Of a stretch of DNA of 64,000 nucleotides, positions 3,763 to 60,981 are shown in pieces. The DNA is taken from the NCBI GenBank assembly GCA_964016885.1, contig OZ024742.1:203360001-203424000 (forward strand), in the 5' to 3' direction. The position numbers and the translations under genes were made by a program. Below the pieces are notes generated by a model. It ran no database searches and was not told the origin of the DNA. It worked only from the letters and a program-made list of their open reading frames with translations. This DNA comes from Eledone cirrhosa (lineage: Eukaryota). Each line of letters starts with the position of its first letter. The stretch's first letter is position 1.

Positions 3763-3810
<48 letters not shown>

Positions 3811-3958
3811 ATACTTTGGGAGGGTCATGTTGCCAATAAGAAACACACGCACCAGTTGCTTTCACTCCAATTTATTATAAATTAAATTTATAAATTTAAG
3901 AATTCATAAATTTCCGGTTGGTTGGTTGGTTCCATAACCGGACGGTTGTTCATATATT

Positions 3959-4001
3959 GTCAAAGTTCTTTCGTCACACATTCTGTGACCTCATCAGTGA
4001 C
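3959..4001 (-). ncRNA. Minimal type I hammerhead ribozyme in the Penelope pLTR
   Basis: GUCA-CUGAUGA-G-GUCACA-GAAUG-UGUGAC-GAAA-GAAC-UU-UGAC; one extra nucleotide after A9. Confidence 0.7.
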
Positions 4002-4204
4002 TGGGGATTCTTTTCTTTGTTTTTGTGCCTCACCTTTGTTCTGTCCTACACCATCTTGTTTTTGTGTCTGTTGTGTGCTTAGTTTGCGCATGTGTTACAT
4101 CCGGGTGTATGTGTGTGTTTATGTTTGTTTATTTATTTGTTTATTTACATGTTACTGGTTGCTTGTTTGTTCTATGTGTGTGTGTGTGTGTTTTCATTTT
4201 GTCC

Positions 4205-5060
4205 TTAATTGTAAGTTGTGATGTTGCTATTCCATTCATGTTTTCTATTTAATTTTGGTTGGAGTTCATTTATGTTTATTGCCTCTGTGATTTGTCTAAA
4301 CATTGCGTCTTTTCTGTGTGTAGATTCTATTTTTATTTCTATCTTCTCTAATTTGCCCTTATGTTCTATTTTAGTATTTGGTGGAGTACAGATGATTCTT
4401 TTCTATCTTGAAGCTCTCGCCAGTGTTCATTTAACCGTTCTCCTATACTACGAGCTGTCTCACCTATGTACACTATATTCTTATCTCTACATTGTCCTTC
4501 AGTACATCTTATGCTATATACTACATTTCTAGTTTTACAGTTTATATGGGGGCTTAGTTTACAGATTATACATTTCTTATCTATACAGGGAGGTCTTTGA
4601 AAAGGGTATGTATTGCTAATAAGTGTTTTTATGGAGGTATCTGGTCTTTCTACTATCTTAATATTAAGTTTATGTTTATCTAGGGCCCTTCTAAATTTGT
4701 AAGCTAATTCACCTCTAGGGGTTGTATTGATGAACATTACACTCTGGTATTTATTGCCATGAGTTTATTCTATTAACCTTATTCCTAGTTCTTTCTATTC
4801 TATTCTAAAATTTGATCCTATACAAAGGGCAGGTCCCATTTGTATCATTATTTATCATTTTTCCCATTTGGTTCTGGCTCCTCTATATACTCTGATTTTA
4901 TCTCTCTGATTGTAAGCAGAGAACTGCATACGGTGGATGAAGTGTTGTATGTGTCTCTCTAGCTCTTTGTGGTTGCACATGCGGGACACTTTTCTCATCA
5001 CCCGTACCAAATCCGCAATCAGTATGTTGATTGGGACCTGCCCCTTGTATAGAAGCAAAT
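4205..5060 (-). pseudogene. Frameshifted Penelope RT-thumb/GIY-YIG ORF remnant
   Basis: ORF-track pieces 4366-4737 and part of 4855-5286, plus an out-of-frame C-terminus at 4205-4380. Confidence 0.85.
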
Positions 5061-25724: not shown

Positions 25725-26299
25725 ATAGAGTTATGAAATAATACATATGAATAAGCCATAGATGACGAACATCATTAAGTAATGTCAGTTTCATGAGGAG
25801 ATAAAACGCCTCCATGAAGGAGAGAAAAAAAAGAAAAGAAAATGAGTATAAATCCTGGAAAACTGTAAGTCCGGTATTGAAAAAAAAAAAAAAAAAAAAA
25901 TCACAATGGATTGACACCCCAAATTCACTATTTTCCTTTTACTTTGCTCCACTTTTCAAGTTAAATGACACGACGGTTCAGTTATATTCAAATATTGTAA
26001 GCGCGTCCATTGAGAATATCGTTATATAAAAAAAATCACAAGGGATTGACAAACTGCTCAGTTGCTCGCATGTGTGCGTGCTGAATTCTGGATCTTTCCG
26101 CTGGGAACAACCCCTTGTTTCCCCCCTCCCTTTTTTTTTCTTTTTTTTTCGTGTACATCCATCCATTCACTCATTCATTTACTGCCATTCTACCTTCCTG
26201 TGTCTCCCCCTCCATGCAACCCCTTTTCGATCTTGTTTTCTGGCACCTCCATATATATAGGTGCGCTATGCTGCCCTCTTACCAGCACTTTCCCTTCCA

Positions 26300-27590
26300 A
26301 CCACACACACCAGCCACCCACCCCTGATGCCGCTCGGTGCCTCAGTCCCCGGCCCCACGTCCTTCCCCCACCCCTCCATATCGACACCTGCAGCACTTGC
26401 GGCACTACTAACAAACGGAAGAGGGGCCCGAACTGTTTGGGGTGTGGCTGCTTCCACCACCTCACCTGCGTTGGCTTGACTCGTCGAGCTTCCAACGCCC
26501 TCGCAGCGTGGAGGTGCAAGAGCTGCCTCTACCCCACGTCTTCCCGCCACTGCCGCCTGGCACACCACCAGATGGGACAGCGAACTTGCCTGACGCCCGA
26601 GCCTCGCTGGTCAACATCGCTCGGCTCAGGCGGCTCCGGAAAATCCCACTCAGGATCCCGAGAGCGGCACGGGTGCCGGTGGCCGATGCCCTCGCTTCCT
26701 CGATTGAGAGCGCCCTGGACTCCAATCGAGCCAGTGACTGGGAGCGGCAGTTCTATTTCGCCCTACTCGCCCTCGGCCTCCCCAGCTCTGGCGCTGACCG
26801 GGGCGGCCGGTCAGCAGCAGTCTTCGTCAAGGTAAATGTCTCGTCATTTGGGCGAGTGCCCATTCCAAGCGTGCCCAGGGACGCCACACACCCCACCCTC
26901 AGGTACCCCCTATCCTCCACCACCGAGGCCAGCGCCAAGTGTTTGCGTGACCAGGTAAACGCAAAGCTTATCATGGGTGATGTCTCGGCCGTAGTCAGAG
27001 TTGTTGCCTCAGAGGACACTGTCGGCCTCCACCCTCTTTCCTGTCGCCACAGTGCCGGCCGCATTCCACGCCATACTGCCCTCAACGAGGTCATTAAGCA
27101 TGGCTTGGACGCTGCAGGCTTCCCTTCCCAGCTCGAGCCGGTGAGGCTGGATCGAGGGGACGGCAAAAGGCCAGATGGCATGACCATCTTCCCGTTCCGC
27201 GGTGGCAAACCCCTCGTCTGGGATGCCGCTTGCACCGACACTTTCTGCAGCCGCAACCTGACCCAGGTTCTGCTGCATGTCGGGCTGAGGGGGCCAAACT
27301 CCTCAAATACCGGTCGCTCTCCGACAGGTTTGCGGTCGTTCCCCAGGCAGTGGAAACTTCTGGTGTCCTCGGCCCCAGGGCTACCTCCTTACTCACCACC
27401 ATAGGCGCTGAGCTGGCCAGCCGTAGGTGTGAGCCCCGCGAGTTGGAGTGGCTTTTCCAGCGCTTCTCCATTGCGGTCCTCCGGGGAAACGCCTTCTCCA
27501 TTCTGTTCGCCAGGGCTATGGATGGGCCCCATCGCGTACCATTACATTAGTTAAATACCATTCTTTCATTCCAGTAGAGTTAAATAAACA
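26300..27590 (+). mobile_element. CRE-clade non-LTR retrotransposon derivative lacking RT (PHD finger, N-terminal region, RLE)
   Basis: PHD-type C4HC3 CSTC..CLGCGCFHHLTC..WRCKSC (26389-26529); LRIPRAARVPVADAL..W..GDVSAVVRVVASEDT; then directly GLHPLSC..RH..LN..EP..GKRPDG..WDA and AVETSGVLGP..LFQRFSIAVLRGNA; frameshifts near 26545 and 27265. Confidence 0.85.
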
Positions 27591-38956: not shown

Positions 38957-39847
38957 AAAAAGGCCTGGACTCAGGAAAAGATTTTTGACTGACCTGGACC
39001 ATCACGCGGAGATCGAATGCAACACATAACGCATATCGTATAGCATACGATATACATCACATATAACATACAACATCCACGCTAGGTTTCTGTAAATCCG
39101 AGATCGACTAAATCCGCTTGCAGCGGTCTGCAAGTTAATGGCCTTTCACGACAGAACAAAGGATTTACTTGGTCAACAAGTGTTCTATAGCCTCAGCGGG
39201 TGTGTTTTCTAGCAGTAAATTTCGCTATAGACACGTGGTTTTCTCCAAAGGAGGTAACCCCCGTTTTGGCGGTGAATTCGAAATTTGAGACAAAGGAATG
39301 AAATTCCCTTAGAAAAACCGAAGTAAGCACTCAACCAAAAGTTATCAAACAAACATAAACAATTAATCAATCAATAGAATTGTCTAATTAAATTAATCAG
39401 TTAGCTGGAACGAATAACGAAAGCTATTCTTTCTGACGTTCTAATAACTCTGCTAACCCACCGCCTATATTCTTTCTATACACACACATATATATATATA
39501 TATATGGACAGATAGATAGATAGATAGATAGATATAATGTACATGTATATACATATACACATATATATCTACAAACATATGCATATATATAATGCAATGA
39601 AATATCTATGATCGTCGGCAAATCACTGATGAGGGACTTATTTTATTACATGTTATCCATGTGCAACCTGCAGTATTCTTCTCCCCATTTTTTCACATAT
39701 ATATATATATATGGTATTTTCTTCGTGGTTATAAGAGGCTTAGCTCTGTTTCTCGACCGTTATATCGCGTGACTATCTCCCCCTCCGCCTTTTGGGATTC
39801 TTTCTCACGTCGTGTAGACGCGTTCTTGAGACTAGTAAAATGAGGTA

Positions 39848-39935
39848 TCCTCTTGATAAGTCGGCAGACCTCGCAAGGACTCTATATCTTTGATATATTG
39901 TTTTTGTTTATGCCACGAAACTACGTAGTCGAGGA
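39848..39935 (+). ncRNA. Type I hammerhead ribozyme, U3:A8 core variant (copy 1)
   Basis: TCCTC-TTGATAA-GT(C)GGCA...TGCCAC-GAAA-CTACGTAG-TC-GAGGA; GUC triplet; predicted cleavage after 39930. Confidence 0.75.
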
Positions 39936-40437
39936 ATTTAGGAACAGTTTAGGTATGATACATTTTATTACTAATTATATCTAAATGTTTCTTCTCTCTT
40001 CATAATGTATTTTTAACTCTGATACTGGTTCAGTCTAGTTCAACCGGATTGGTCTGTCCCAGTCATTCATTGAGCAACATCGGTGAAGTTGGCACCTTTA
40101 ACTCACAGTTGGGTGCGGATGCATTCATGTATATATGTGTGTGTCCGCATGTATCTGTGTGTTTCTAAATATATTAATAACTCCCTCTGGTCGAGCAATC
40201 TTTGAAGTGTAGGGACAACTGGAAAGCTTCCATTACTCATACTTCTCGCCTTCTTCACTACCTCTTCTACGGCCTCGATATGAATACCCCCTCCGCCTCC
40301 GTGGTATTTTCTTCGTGGTTATAAGAGGCTTAGCTCTGTTTCTCGACCGTTATATCGCGTGACTATCTCCCCCTCCGCCTTTTGGGATTCTTTCTCACGT
40401 CGTGTAGACGCGTTCTTGAGACTAGTAAAATGAGGTA

Positions 40438-40525
40438 TCCTCTTGATAAGTCGGCAGACCTCGCAAGGACTCTATATCTTTGATATATTGTTTTTGTTTA
40501 TGCCACGAAACTACGTAGTCGAGGA
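40438..40525 (+). ncRNA. Type I hammerhead ribozyme, U3:A8 core variant (copy 2)
   Basis: Identical motif; predicted cleavage after 40520. Confidence 0.75.
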
Positions 40526-41027
40526 ATTTATGAACAGTTTAGGTATGATACATTTTATTACTAATTATATCTAAATGTTTCTTCTCTCTTCATAATGTAT
40601 TTTTAACTCTGATACTGGTTCAGTCTAGTTCAACCGGATTGGTCTGTCTCAGTCATTCATTGAGCAACATCGGTGAAGTTGGCACCCTTAACTCACAGTT
40701 GGGTGCGGATGCATTCATGTATATATGTGTGTGTCCGCATGTATCTGTGTGTTTCTAAATATATTAATAACTCCCTCTGGTCGAGCAATCTTTGAAGTGT
40801 GGGGACAACTGGAAAGTTTCCATTACTCATACTTCTCGCCTTCTTCACTACCTCTTCTACGGCCTCGATATGAATACCCCCTCCGCCTCCGTGGTATTTT
40901 CTTCGTGGTTATAAGAGGCTTAGCTCTGTTTCTCGACCGTTATATCGCGTGACTATCTCCCCCTCCGCCTTTTGGGATTCTTTCTCACGTCGTGTAGACG
41001 CGTTCTTGAGACTAGTAAAATGAGGTA

Positions 41028-41115
41028 TCCTCTTGATAAGTCGGCAGACCTCGCAGGGACTCTATATCTTTGATATATTGTTTTTGTTTATGCCACGAAA
41101 CTACGTAGTCGAGGA
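41028..41115 (+). ncRNA. Type I hammerhead ribozyme, U3:A8 core variant (copy 3)
   Basis: Same core; one A>G change in a stem II side hairpin keeps pairing (U-G); predicted cleavage after 41110. Confidence 0.75.
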
Positions 41116-41178
41116 ATTTAGGAACAGTTTAGGTATGATACATTTTATTACTAATTATATCTAAATGTTTCTTCTCTC

Positions 41179-41631
<453 letters not shown>

Positions 41632-49164: not shown

Positions 49165-52100
49165 TTTTTTTTTTTTTTTTTACCTATTTGTTTGTTTGTT
49201 TATTTATGTTCGTCTACAGCGTGATAGTGCCACACAAAAATCACCGGGATTGATGAAATCACCGGTGGTTATGTAACCATACATTCACCAATCCTCGATA
49301 AGAGTGTTTAAATGTCGAACCTAAACAGTTCGAATAACGGTGGAATGGAGACTAGAATGTCATGTGACAGACTCTCACCCAACAGGTGCTCCCTGGCTCA
49401 GCAGCAGGGACCTGGCTGTCAACCAAATACTGCTGGTGTCGGAGGAAGAAGAAGAAGGAAAGGGACCAGAACCAACTGGACGAAAGAATTGAATAGAATT
49501 GTTATGCAATGTTACCTGAAGAGTAACCCCAAGGAGAAAGGCTATAGGAAACGGATGCATAAAATCTGGAACGAGATTGGTCTATTTAAATTAGATGAAC
49601 AAAAATTGGCCGGGGAGGCTCGGGTAATAAGAACTAATGGGTCGATAAGCGAGCTGGAACTGGAGGAACTGAGCAGAGAGATTAGGTTGGAAATGGAGAG
49701 TGGAGTATGCCAGGCAAACGAGGCAGTGGGAAATGAAGGTGAAGAGGTTGAGAGAACGGAGGAACCATCCGAAGCAGACAATGATCTGAATGCTGAAATA
49801 AATAATACCTGGAACAAAGATACGGCCATTGAGGAGATGAATGCTGACGGGCTAGCACAAGATTTGGTTGATATCCTAAACTTAGTGGTAGATGAATTGA
49901 ACAATGATAGTGGGAAACCTATGAACCTAAGATTTGTAGACAGGAAAAAGTTAAAAGAAACAACAGCTAAGGTAAACAAAGTCATCCCATACCTTGAGGC
50001 GAGGAGCCTTCACCAGTGCAACAATATCCTCAAAGCAACAGCAAATGCGGTGAGAAAATTACTTAGTATAAAAGCGAGAGGAAACAACAAACAAGAAAGA
50101 TCAGAGCCTTGGTGGAAGAAACGACTGAATGGTCAAATCAGGGAAATGAGAAATGACATTGGAAAGCTTGAGTCCCTACTGAATGGGACACTAAAAAACT
50201 TAGACACTAAAATTAGACTGGAAATAAAGTACAAAACTAGGAGGAAAAAGCTAAATATTATCATAGAGGAACTGAAGCAACGCATTGTAGCAAAGAGTGC
50301 AAAAATTAGGCGATACGAGAGCAGAGTCAGTCAGTATAGTCAGAACCGCATGTTTGACAACAACCAGAAGATGCTGTTTGTACAGCTTGAAGGGAAAGAA
50401 AGAGGCAACGACTTGATCCCTGAGGCGGAACAAACTAAGACCTTCTGGAGAGGAATATGGGAGCAGGATGTTAAACATAATGACCAGGCAGTGTGGATTG
50501 AGACAGTACAAAAGGAGATTAGTGAACAGGCACACCAACAAACTGATTTGAGTATCACAGTTGAAACTCTTAAGGGGCAGGCCAAAAAACTAACCAACTG
50601 GAAATCACCAGGCCCAGATGGTGTGCAGGGGTATTGGATTAAAAATATAACATCTCTCCACCCGAAACTGACAACCATGTTCAATGACTGCTTGATGTCA
50701 GGTGAGGTAGCAGAGTGGTTGACAAAAGGTACCACAGTTCTGGTAATGAAAGACCGAATCAAGGGTAATGATGTTACCAACTATAGACCTATCACATGTC
50801 TGTCCGTAATGTGGAAACTGTTGACAAGCATTATGTCTGAGGAAATCTACCTACACCTCCACACAAACAACCTGTTACCGGACGAACAGAAAGGATGCCG
50901 AAAGAAGTCCCGTGGTACAAAGGACCAGTTAATTATTGATAAGATGGTAATGAGGAATTGCAAGAGGAGACACGCTGGTATTGCCATGGGATGGATAGAC
51001 TACAAAAAAGCATTTGACATGGTGCCTCATTCTTGGATCACCAAAAGCCTAGAGATCTTCAAGGTGGCAGATAACATCAGACAGTTGTTGGGCAAAAGTA
51101 TGAAGTCCTGGAAAACAGAATTAACATCAGCTGGAGATTCCTTGGGAGGCGTGAAGATCAAGAGAGGTATCTTCCAGGGAGATAGTCTGTTCCCTTTGTT
51201 GTTTGTCCTTGCCCTGATGCCCCTGACCATTATACTGCGAAAAGTGAGAGCAGGATACAAGTTAGGAAAGGGAGAGCTTACCATCAATCACCTCCTCTTC
51301 ATGGACGATCTTAAGCTCTTCGGGAAGAGTGAGAAGGAGTTGGATGTGCTTGTTGACACTGTCCGTATTTTCAGCAATGATATATGTATGCAATTTGGTA
51401 TTAGTATGTGTGGAGTCCTTGTGATGAAGAGGGGTAAATTGAGCAGAAGCAACGGAATCCAGGTATTAACAGGTGAGATGGTAAAGGAAATTGACACTGA
51501 AGAAGGATACAAGTATTTGGGTTTTCTGGAGGCTGATGACATCAAGAACAAAAACATGAAGGAATTGATAAGATCTGAATACATTCGGAGAGTAAGGAGA
51601 ATATTAAAGTCACATCTGAACAGTAGGAATGCCATAAGTGCAGTAAATTCCCGAGCTGTATCTATTATTAGGTACAGTGGGGGAATTCTGAGATGGAATG
51701 TTGCTGAACAAAAAGAAATGGATAGGAAGACTAGGAAGCTATTGACTATCTACAACATGTTCCACAAGAGGAGTGATGTCGATAGACTCTACTTAAGGAG
51801 ATCTGAAGGTGGAAGAAGTCTTATCAGCATAGAGGACTGTGTTCAGATGGAGAAAAACAACCTACACAAATACGTGACTGATAGTAAGGAGCCAATGCTC
51901 AGAATTGTACTGAAGCAGAGGACAATAGACCAGGGGATTCCAAGGCGGAAATAAAAACAAGGAGAAAGAGCAGCCTTCATGAAAAATCCCTTCATAGTAC
52001 CTTCTTTGAGAAAACTGAATTCAGAGATCCACAGACATGGAACTGGTTGAAAAGAGGAGACATTAAAAAGGCTATAGAAGGAATACTAATGGCTGTGCAA

Positions 52101-52865: not shown

Positions 52866-54295
52866 TTTCATTTATTAGCCACAAGGGCCGACATGTAGGG
52901 GACAATACAAAGACAGGGACAGTGGGGGTTTATAATAAGGTCGAGTAAGTGCACAATGGCAAGACTAATTTAACAATGAAAATATAAAAATATACAATAA
53001 ACTATGCATAAATATAACAAAATAAATTCCCCGATAGGGGGTGGACGACCCTGGGGTGACTCGGGTACCCCACCAATCCTGAACCACCCTGCGCTTCTAG
53101 GGCACCCAGGGAGTGCACCCGTCTCCTCAAGTTAGCTAGCCTATAGGCGCATGGTCAGAGTAGGCCCAATCACACGAGCCATTCTCGCCACATTCACCCA
53201 CCTATTAGCAAATGTACTGGGGGGAAGCACTTCTCTCTCCACTCTCACCTTCCTTTCCAGGTGAAACTTGAAGAAGTTGATGAGGGATTGGCCGAAGAGA
53301 AAAGTGTCTGTCTTCAGTCCTTTTAACCTGGTCCACCATATAACCTCTTTCGCAACTGCCACCAGACAGGAACATTTCCTGCTCTTCCTGACCTAAGGAA
53401 GGCGGTGGATCAATCTTCACTATGGAGTCGGCCGATAGCCGGATTCGTTCCACACGCAACAGTAGCTGTTCGACATAACTCCACAAGTCAGTAATGCACG
53501 GACATTGGACAAGTGCGTGCAGAACGGTTTCGTCGTTCTGTGCGCATCTTGAGCAGGTCCGTCTGACAGCACTTCCGTGCCTGTTGAGTTTATCCCGAAC
53601 CGGTAGTCCCCCCCCCCCCCCCGGTAGCACTGCCAAGCGAGGGATTTCTGGAAATTGTCCATCGTCCCCGGCTCAAAAGTCCTCCGGTACAGACTGGTCA
53701 GTTCGATTCGTCGAGGCCCAAAGCTTCTCCGAGTGCGTCATCGCACTTGCCCACCACTAATCCTCTATAGAACTCGAGAGTGGAAGTTCCACTGATCGCA
53801 TTGCCCGCTTTGTAGAGGGCCGTGAGTGCTTGGCAACATTCCAGGTGCCAGTCACCCAGTCTCGGTCTCTTCTTGACCCAGGACTGCAGCTCAGTCAAAG
53901 AAATGAGCTGCGGAAAGGCCCGTCTAATAAACGGCGACCACACCTGTTCACTGTTGAGGCAGAATATCTGGAGATGTCGCAGCCTCAACGCATGTCTGCG
54001 CATCATTAGCCACGGCATGCCCAGCCCTCTGCGTAGAGGGTGCTGGCAGCAGATGGACCGCCTCACCAACGGAACTTGTCCTCTCCACAAGAATTTGAAG
54101 AGGAGCCGTTCCAACTTGACGAGGCGCGGACGGGGGCAAGGCACGACGGTCAGGCGGTAGCAGATGACGGACGTGATGTACGCATTCGCCACCTCCACCT
54201 CCGCGCGACCTTTCAGTGATAGCTTCCTCCCAGCCCATTTTTGGGTGAGACTGGCTACTCTGCTCGTTACCTCGTCCCAATTCTTTTCCACCTGG
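52862..54295 (-). mobile_element. Tx1/L1-like LINE, 5'-truncated (post-RT region and zinc-binding domain)
   Basis: WAGRKLSLKGRAEV..FKFLW..GLGMP; LPVRDKL..CSRCAQNDETVLHALVQC; AKEVIWWTR; 3' end abuts (ATT)n. Confidence 0.88.
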
Positions 54296-54545
54296 AACTG
54301 CCATGAAGTCAAAGTGGTCCCGATTGTCATAGGCACACTAGGTACTATCTCAAAAAGTTTCCAGGGATGGTGAAAGAAAATTGGCCCCGCCACGCTTTTT
54401 GGAACGCTTCAAAAGGCATGCTTGCTGGGAACAGCAAGAACCCTCCGATACGTCCTGAATATCTGAGGCTGCAGGTAGTGGCTTGATATTCATTTCAACA
54501 AACTTTCCAGTTAAATAATATCAATGACTGAGACTCAAAGAACAA
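54293..54545 (+). mobile_element. R4/Dong 3' fragment
   Basis: Near-identical to 52559-52810. Confidence 0.9.
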
Positions 54546-59919: not shown

Positions 59920-60795
59920 GATAGATTTCTTTATTTGCCACAAGGACGCACAAGAAAAGGGGGCAATACAAAGACACATGCCGGGGATTTTACATACATC
60001 GTGTAAAAATATTGAAACAAACAATTATAACAATCGAAATCCCCAATAGGGGAGAGGCGCCACAAATGGGTTGTTTAACACCCCGTCGATAGAACAACCC
60101 TCAACTTCAGAAGCGTGTTGTGCAAGTGCTCCCTTCTCCCTTTTACTCTCTTTAACCTACAGGCTTATAAACAGAGAAGGCCCAATCACTCGGGCCATTT
60201 TCGCTTCATTCACCCACCTTTAAGTAAATTTACTGGGGTGCAGTGCCCCTCTCTCCACTCTGATTCTCCTTCTAAAGTGATACTTAAAGAAGGGAATCAA
60301 TTGTTGTCCGGAGAGAAAGGCATCTGCCCTCAGTCCTCTCAATCTCGTCCACCATATAACCTCTTTCACCATAGCCACTGTACAGAGGAAAACCGCCCCT
60401 CTTTCGTTTTTGAAAGAGGCTGGCGGTTTGATCCTTACTATGGACTCGGCAGTCAACTGGATTTGTCCCATACGCGACAGCAGTTGTTCTGCATAGTTCC
60501 ACAGGTCGGTTACGCCCGGGCAGTGTACAATTGTGTGCAAGACGGTTTCAATTTCCTGCTCGCATCTTGGACACGTCCTCTTGGAAGGATCCCTGCCGGG
60601 GCGTCCGTGCCTGTAGATCTTATCTCGAACGGGTAGAGCTCCTCGGTAGCAGTGCCAGGCCAGAGACTTCTGGAAGTTGTCCATAGATTCCGGGCGGAAA
60701 GTCCTACCGAACAGACTGGTGAGCTCGTCGTCTTCGACGCCTAGAATCTCCCCGAGCACGTCGTCGCACTTGTAAAGTACTAACCCTCTATAGTA
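59920..60795 (-). mobile_element. Tx1/L1-like LINE 3' fragment
   Basis: ORF 60220-60816 MDNFQKSLAWHCYRGALPVRDK..CPRCEQEIETVLHTIVHC..VKEVIWWTR; a paralog of 52862-54295. Confidence 0.88.
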
Positions 60796-60981
60796 GATAG
60801 ATAGATAGATATGCATGTTTGAGTGTGTATATATATATAATAGAAAAAAACGAGGCAGTTTTGTTTACACATGAAAAATATTTATTGCATATCGATCTTT
60901 TACGCGAGTTTCGCAGTGTTTTGGCTCAACCTGACCCGTAGGAGTTATGAACCCCACTCCAGTATTTCACCGTAATACCTA

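Follow-up and report, generated by a model that had tools for sequence, protein, structure and literature searches.

The window analysed here (the whole stretch of DNA, 64,000 nt long) contains a short tandem array of a protein-free 590-nt unit with a hammerhead motif in each unit. Comparison of genomic copies supports the view that this motif is under selection in a young non-coding tandem retroelement of retrozyme/Penelope type. We are very confident of the class of element, which we take to be a non-LTR retrozyme, likely carried as a Penelope-mobilised passenger. The fuller account is held with moderate confidence. It states that this high-copy U3:A8 hammerhead tandem is likely a non-autonomous retroelement, and that it is likely transcribed on the hammerhead strand and likely inserted in (TA)n by a Penelope-like reverse transcriptase/endonuclease. 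The array has the following parts.

39712..41184, + strand: tandem array of 2.5 x 590-nt units, a single-arm insertion (sequence comparison)
39697..39711, no strand: (TA)n target tract, left flank (sequence)
41182..41225, no strand: (TA)n target tract, right flank (sequence)
39931..40520, + strand: predicted 590-nt monomer from cut site to cut site, strong fold on this strand only

The 2.5 units are arranged head to tail with a period of 590 (875 matches in 882 positions). Stop-free frames around the unit reach 71 aa at most, tblastn gave no match to a Penelope ORF, and the GC content of the unit is 244/590, which is below 50%. The non-coding tandem between TA tracts thus stands as it was first described. 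An assembly artefact had been named as a way for that description to fail. The 590-nt back-joint is present in contigs of all four public runs that were compared with it (3 studies; run kind unrecorded), so the tandem is real. Counting from the predicted cut, the array is truncated at its 5' end at unit position 372 and stops at unit position ~74, just before the first fixed 3' end of the family at 80. It must be noted that in two runs, X4 and X6, the unit is found as one closed contig of 620/621 nt, ~99% identical, at a depth of ~8. These runs are labelled as two other organisms, their kind is unrecorded and contamination is possible; such a contig would arise alike from a circle, from a tandem transcript or from traces of tandem-repeat DNA, and we do not count it as evidence.

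The motif has the same layout in each unit. The 5' strand of stem I, TCCTC (39848-52), is followed by the core TTGATAA (39853-59), stem II GT(C)GGCA/TGCCAC, GAAA (39917-20), the 10-bp palindrome ACTACGTAGT (39920-29), C17 at 39930 within GUC, and then GAGGA. The C17 positions of the three units (39930, 40520 and 41110) are the predicted cut sites, and the original prediction was right on all of these elements. It was wrong in calling stem II branched, since folding gives one long helix that has no branches and is interrupted by a bulge and internal loops.

39848..39935, + strand: type I hammerhead 1, U3:A8 core, predicted cut after 39930 (descriptor, folding)
40438..40525, + strand: type I hammerhead 2, predicted cut after 40520 (descriptor)
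41028..41115, + strand: type I hammerhead 3, predicted cut after 41110 (descriptor)

A descriptor that permits C3:G8 or U3:A8 matches these three sites only in the whole 64-kb window, and has 0 matches in 5000 dinucleotide shuffles of the unit. UUGAUAA, GAAA and GUC agree with the general core (YUGANRA + GAAA + NUH, in which positions 3 and 8 make a Watson-Crick pair). The core can be enclosed by stems I, II and III, with 98% of 593 cells paired among 22 selected variants. At least two such units in a row, each with one type I hammerhead, is the arrangement of a non-LTR retrozyme. No hammerhead family is among the 98 Rfam matches listed at E<=10, so a standard Rfam search overlooks the unit, as had been anticipated for standard CUGANGA searches.

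The family is large. The 590-nt monomer has 955 candidates in its own 3.0-Gb genome (40 of them scored), and CCTCTTGATAAG occurs 7,685 times against 131 for a control. An exact 19-mer around the core has 6,290 copies and its control has none, which sets 6,290 as the lower bound for the hammerhead motif. In the same sequence context U3:A8 is found in 6,290 of 6,317 copies; 12 are without U3, all of which retain A8, and 15 are without A8. None of the 6,317 is C3:G8, and a genome search with a looser C3:G8 sister pattern that keeps the same stem II gave 0 matches. We therefore argue that U3:A8 is the inherited state of the family, and not decay from C3:G8, which had been raised as the alternative. 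Copy number and U3/A8 covariation had been proposed as checks; the copies are many, but there is no 3:8 covariation within the family.

A second subfamily is ~75% identical to the window unit, and intermediates exist. An alignment of 49 pieces drawn from 27 loci has no change in any of the 42 hammerhead columns in this subfamily, compared to 413 of 545 columns unchanged outside the motif (p=1.4e-5). The two hammerhead halves are also the longest two stretches that do not vary between the subfamilies. In the hammerhead alignment alone the covariation measures do not exceed column shuffles; the core stems are essentially invariant. Another invariant feature lies between the second fixed end and the next hammerhead.

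40283..40382 (40283-40298 and 40368-40382), + strand: two CCCCCTCCGCC motifs, invariant between subfamilies (subfamily alignment)

These twin motifs are possibly GC-box promoter or protein-binding boxes. The mutations themselves show a strand bias. On the hammerhead strand, shared derived changes include 19 A>G against 9 T>C, while the singletons are 15 and 35 (p=0.002). The A>G excess fits A-to-I editing of an RNA intermediate. Selection for G-U pairs could be an alternative; however, C>T has no such excess (4).

Exchanges at 3:8 are reportedly covered by Przybilski (2007), and Penelope hammerhead dimers are said to have been covered by Lunse (2017). U3-A8 is found in ~1,300 S. mansoni Penelope hammerheads, for which dimer action and low activity are reported and circles are put forward as templates (PMC4209133). 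Other natural hammerheads have U3/A8 too, and such variants are active in vitro (PMC3088659). Non-LTR retrozymes of 150-450 bp have been shown to form circles, with Penelope elements named as candidate mobilisers (PMC7229834). A later preprint prints a range of 51-972 bp for animal retrozyme units and homology to pLTRs (bioRxiv 10.64898/2026.07.22.740005). The claim that the unit is longer than animal retrozymes must be given up given this range, and neither the U3:A8 core nor the 590-nt length is new. The idea of a candidate new family survives in part: a selected type I hammerhead in a retrozyme/Penelope-type tandem stands, whereas the core variant was already in print (PMC4209133, PMC3088659). 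We found no literature on the 590-nt family among titles and abstract beginnings, with few subscription papers included, and the supplements of PMC7229834, PMC4209133, PMC8557442 and the 2026 preprint may list this motif or similar ones.

It is worth considering how the copies were inserted. They lie in (TA)n, have variable 5' starts, and end at unit position ~80 (E80) or ~245 (E245) after the cut site, which are 165 nt apart.

40010, also 40600, + strand: fixed 3' end 1 (E80), putative reverse-transcription start (genome copies; TA loose ends at 40010 in independent runs)
40174..40176, also 40764-66, + strand: fixed 3' end 2 (E245), putative start of reverse transcription, at the base of a conserved hairpin (genome copies; TA loose ends at 40174 in independent runs)

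There were 65 inverted two-arm calls away from locus edges. Of these, 21 had an unclassed end and were dropped; they are mostly BLAST breaks in diverged copies, or rearrangements. Among the 44 classed inverted insertions 43 pair E80 with E245, one pairs E245 with E245, and none pairs E80 with E80. Removing one duplicate leaves 42 of 43, which gives p=5e-12 versus an independent 50:50 choice of ends. Single arms (n=52) end at E80 in 27 cases, at E245 in 18 and elsewhere in 7. Arms longer than 600 nt make up 69 of 188, and arms longer than 1,200 nt make up 15 of 188, in a sample biased to long copies. Partial tandems, an inverted 5'-truncated arm, a tail at one end and a microsatellite target are the marks of Penelope-type (EN+) insertion, and all were found here. 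Published Penelope elements likewise have partial tandems, inverted arms, a 30-40-bp tail that is often at one end only, and a TA bias (PMC8557442). Purified Penelope protein starts reverse transcription from two internal sites that define the tail, and extends both strands with no strand difference in start site (PMC11167929).

A candidate mobiliser can be examined in the same genome. This Neptune-like family has a reverse transcriptase (RT), a CxxxxCxxC linker and GIY-YIG, with 27,427 first-look candidates; the clade label rests on the linker as described in PMC8557442, not on a tree. Its longest open frame is 613 aa among 150 scored matches. It has its own canonical hammerhead, TA targets and two TA-joined ends ~60 nt apart. 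Of its 10 classed inverted pairs, 9 combine a short end with a tailed one; 1 further pair, unclassed, was left out. Part of one copy lies in the window.

3800-4764, - strand: 3' portion of a Penelope element of the Neptune-like family, with GIY-YIG, the CxxxxCxxC linker and a canonical CUGAUGA hammerhead at 3997

Since the 590-nt unit has no ORF, sits in TA sites, has two fixed ends and follows a one-site-per-arm pattern as in the Neptune-like element, we argue that it is non-autonomous and likely a Penelope-mobilised non-LTR retrozyme. The original prediction had looked to an autonomous Penelope element that shares the unit. No sequence is shared between the unit and the Neptune-like family, which is the one Penelope family examined.

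Other repeats lie in the window and at other loci. To the right of the array, 41226-41480 is a separate repeat. It contains a long inverted repeat at 41228-41367 and, at 41426, a hammerhead-like motif of canonical CUGAAGA type; it is probably another Penelope remnant, and related pieces are found in other loci. To the left, 39586-39700 is a short TA-flanked repeat with a CTGATGAG motif. Related copies of it are found in several other loci, some adjoining insertions of the 590-nt family. Small canonical hammerhead-like motifs (CUGAUGA/CUGACGA...CGAAAC) in other repeat families are found at ~3030 on the - strand and in loci L101, L106 and L116. At 49312-51954 on the + strand, an open frame of 880 aa that encodes a reverse transcriptase domain (Pfam RVT_1) belongs to a non-LTR retrotransposon that is unrelated to the array. 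Fragments at 26050-27550, 53205-54408 and 60220-60864 resemble other retroelement ORFs, and Pfam gave no match for the two that were searched (26412-27401 and 53698-54405).

What served as the template of insertion can be judged from the 5' ends. Run-off at the cut site, or the use of cut linear templates, was suggested by the 2 of 167 arms that start exactly at the predicted cut. This was rejected since there is no specific pile-up of 5' ends. Genome-wide, junction patterns of differing stringency gave 30 matches at the cut site (3 positions). Just downstream there were 35 (3 positions), and two sets of 2 positions upstream gave 13 and 6. The lack of a pile-up implies that reverse transcription normally passes the cut site, and therefore that the template is a circle or an uncut multimer and not a cut linear monomer. 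Monomers have a median of 2 differences within a locus versus 21 between loci, so both arms usually come from one variant. However, not all insertions are that uniform. Of 252 differences within insertions, 56 fall at family-shared sites, spread over 34 of 76 multi-piece loci, and ~7 of the 56 stem from choosing loci for an A8 variant. Three loci (L008, L083 and L159) are mosaic. Neither the shared-site differences nor the mosaics would be expected from a single circle as template. We consider the question of whether the circle is the main template to be evenly balanced.

The strongest competitor keeps the Penelope-mobilised passenger but makes an uncut linear multimer the template. The hammerhead would then be slow, protein-dependent or a mere binding fold, and circles would have no role. 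The 5' ends without a pile-up at the cut site fit this scenario, as do the mosaics, the shared-site differences inside insertions and the predicted off-state of the ribozyme described below. Uncut RNA is also the main substrate for the anole element (PMC11167929). It is harder to reconcile with the invariance of all catalytic positions over ~25% divergence. Copying of linear templates with loss of 5' ends should also shorten the element each round, yet the arms of more than 1,200 nt exist. We regard it as possible, though doubtful.

Folding predictions bear on what the hammerhead does. The z-scores of circular folds are -5.6 to -6.2 for sense and -0.1 to -0.9 for antisense in 4 of 4 monomers (76-100% identity), which are the window monomer and three diverged ones out of 72 extracted, with 12 shuffles each. 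The linear monomer has a z of -5.76. A monomer predicted to be this strongly self-paired is what one expects of a non-LTR retrozyme. In the isolated 111-nt motif stems I and II are predicted to form, and the local fold is unremarkable (z -0.57). Forcing the active hammerhead in the monomer or the circle has a predicted cost of ~+8 kcal/mol, in a model that leaves out tertiary contacts and proteins. Once the native upstream sequence is included the predicted probability of stem I is ~0, and predictions with that sequence have no co-transcriptional window for the active fold. Two hairpins would hold the ribozyme in this off-state.

39842..39852, + strand: predicted GAGG/CCUC hairpin that masks the 5' strand of stem I, conserved across subfamilies (folding)
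39922..40009, + strand: predicted long hairpin, helix III plus GAGGA paired with a stretch that ends at the first fixed 3' end (folding)

The consensus fold of the subfamilies is this off-state. In 14 selected sequences, the region from the hammerhead through the two fixed ends has 91 consensus pairs, 5 of which are changed on both sides. A dimer would be less costly. The 10-bp palindrome duplex is predicted at -12.9 kcal/mol, and a double hammerhead formed through it costs +5 to +14 kcal/mol versus +15 to +21 for two single ones, though the dimer form is still uphill by prediction. These values suggest that cleavage may occur as a dimer, perhaps protein-assisted, with the monomer protected. 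That the hammerhead would cleave under some condition we consider probable. In print, the Penelope hammerhead is protein-assisted and its cleavage is dispensable for insertion in vitro (PMC11167929), and among nine Xenopus retrozyme dimers one was cleaved and eight were uncleaved (bioRxiv 10.64898/2026.07.22.740005).

We propose the following route. Tandem transcripts would be cut mainly as a double hammerhead through the palindrome, while in a lone monomer or circle the ribozyme would be folded off and the RNA would survive. A Penelope protein dimer would nick both strands of a TA tract. With RNA of a single variant as the template, it would prime one cDNA at E245 and a second at E80, giving inverted two-arm insertions. 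Circles would be the simplest template that regains multi-unit length. Taken to its full extent, this makes the unit a 590-nt circular RNA parasite of Penelope elements. Its hammerhead would cut only as a dimer; in the circle, pairing with the first reverse-transcription start of the same RNA would keep it switched off. The Penelope dimer would prime both target strands at the two sites and roll out inverted multi-unit insertions, and A-to-I edits would be fixed into new subfamilies. The joint reading is tentative, and we hold it less likely than not.

Less likely still, the unit could serve as pseudo-LTR in an autonomous Penelope element, with the copies that have an ORF falling outside our sample. 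The hammerhead type, the tail, the inversions and the TA targeting are as in autonomous elements, Xenopus retrozymes resemble pLTRs (bioRxiv 10.64898/2026.07.22.740005), and the loci covered are ~150 of several thousand. However, units join end to start with no ORF-sized gap between them in the BLAST maps of the mapped loci, and beyond E245 the tandem runs on into the unit rather than into an ORF. No RT + GIY-YIG ORF between pLTRs was found in the unit or the mapped loci, and the single Penelope family examined has no homology to it. We consider this improbable. A DNA-level satellite with a chance hammerhead-like motif would explain the tandem structure, but it is largely refuted by the dispersal of short arrays whose 3' ends are fixed while their 5' starts vary, the inverted insertions, the strand-specific folding and mutation bias, the 0 of 5000 shuffles, and the conserved hammerhead columns of the ~75% subfamily, and its chances are slight.

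The argument that Penelope elements mobilise animal retrozymes has so far been made from co-occurrence (PMC7229834) and from pLTR homology (bioRxiv 10.64898/2026.07.22.740005). The 590-nt unit is a hammerhead repeat without coding capacity, its family is young with motif copies in the thousands, and it bears the complete footprint of Penelope integration. The two putative start sites are distant enough to reveal one site per arm in inverted insertions, and this pattern argues for asymmetric twin priming. Twin priming has its precedent in L1. We found no literature on twin priming of Penelope elements among titles and abstract beginnings, with few subscription papers included, and PMC8557442 calls this step of their transposition unresolved. 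The short RNA is a ready substrate for testing priming, circles as templates and the role of the hammerhead. In addition, a family of >6,000 motifs can be overlooked by CUGANGA or Rfam searches.

The closest known systems are the animal non-LTR retrozymes (PMC7229834; bioRxiv 10.64898/2026.07.22.740005). They too have non-coding tandem units with one type I hammerhead each, low GC, a palindromic helix III, a strongly self-paired monomer, thousands of copies and coexisting Penelope elements. The unit differs in its U3:A8 core and very long stem II, and its 590 nt exceed the 150-450 bp of the 2020 paper (PMC7229834) but fall inside the range of the 2026 preprint. In the accessible text on these retrozymes we found no description of short dispersed arrays, inverted arms and two fixed ends. 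Circles and cleavage have been demonstrated there, whereas here they are a prediction.

EN+ Penelope-like elements of Neptune type (PMC8557442, PMC4209133, PMC11167929) share the partial tandems, the inverted 5'-truncated arm, the tail at one end only, the (TA)n targets and a hammerhead upstream of two internal start sites. The unit differs from them in being without an ORF, in the short TA-like similarity to the target at both of its fixed ends, and in its tail, which is ~165 nt compared to 30-40 bp in print and ~60 nt in the Neptune-like family of this genome. The U3-A8 minimal hammerheads of S. mansoni Cercyon elements (PMC4209133) have the same covariant core, Penelope context and high copy number. 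They are heterogeneous and mostly single minimal motifs, while the 590-nt family is tandem and homogeneous, its core does not vary and its helix III is a palindrome of 10 nt. MRC1 and other non-autonomous Chlamys elements (PMC8557442) are also non-coding Penelope passengers with head-to-tail multicopy insertions. Most Chlamys are without canonical hammerheads and the passengers resemble their autonomous partners at the 3' end, whereas the 590-nt unit has no such likeness to the one Neptune-like family examined. The long tail, the near-strict end asymmetry, the conserved predicted off-switch and the editing-like A>G bias set the unit apart, and make it a useful variant and model.
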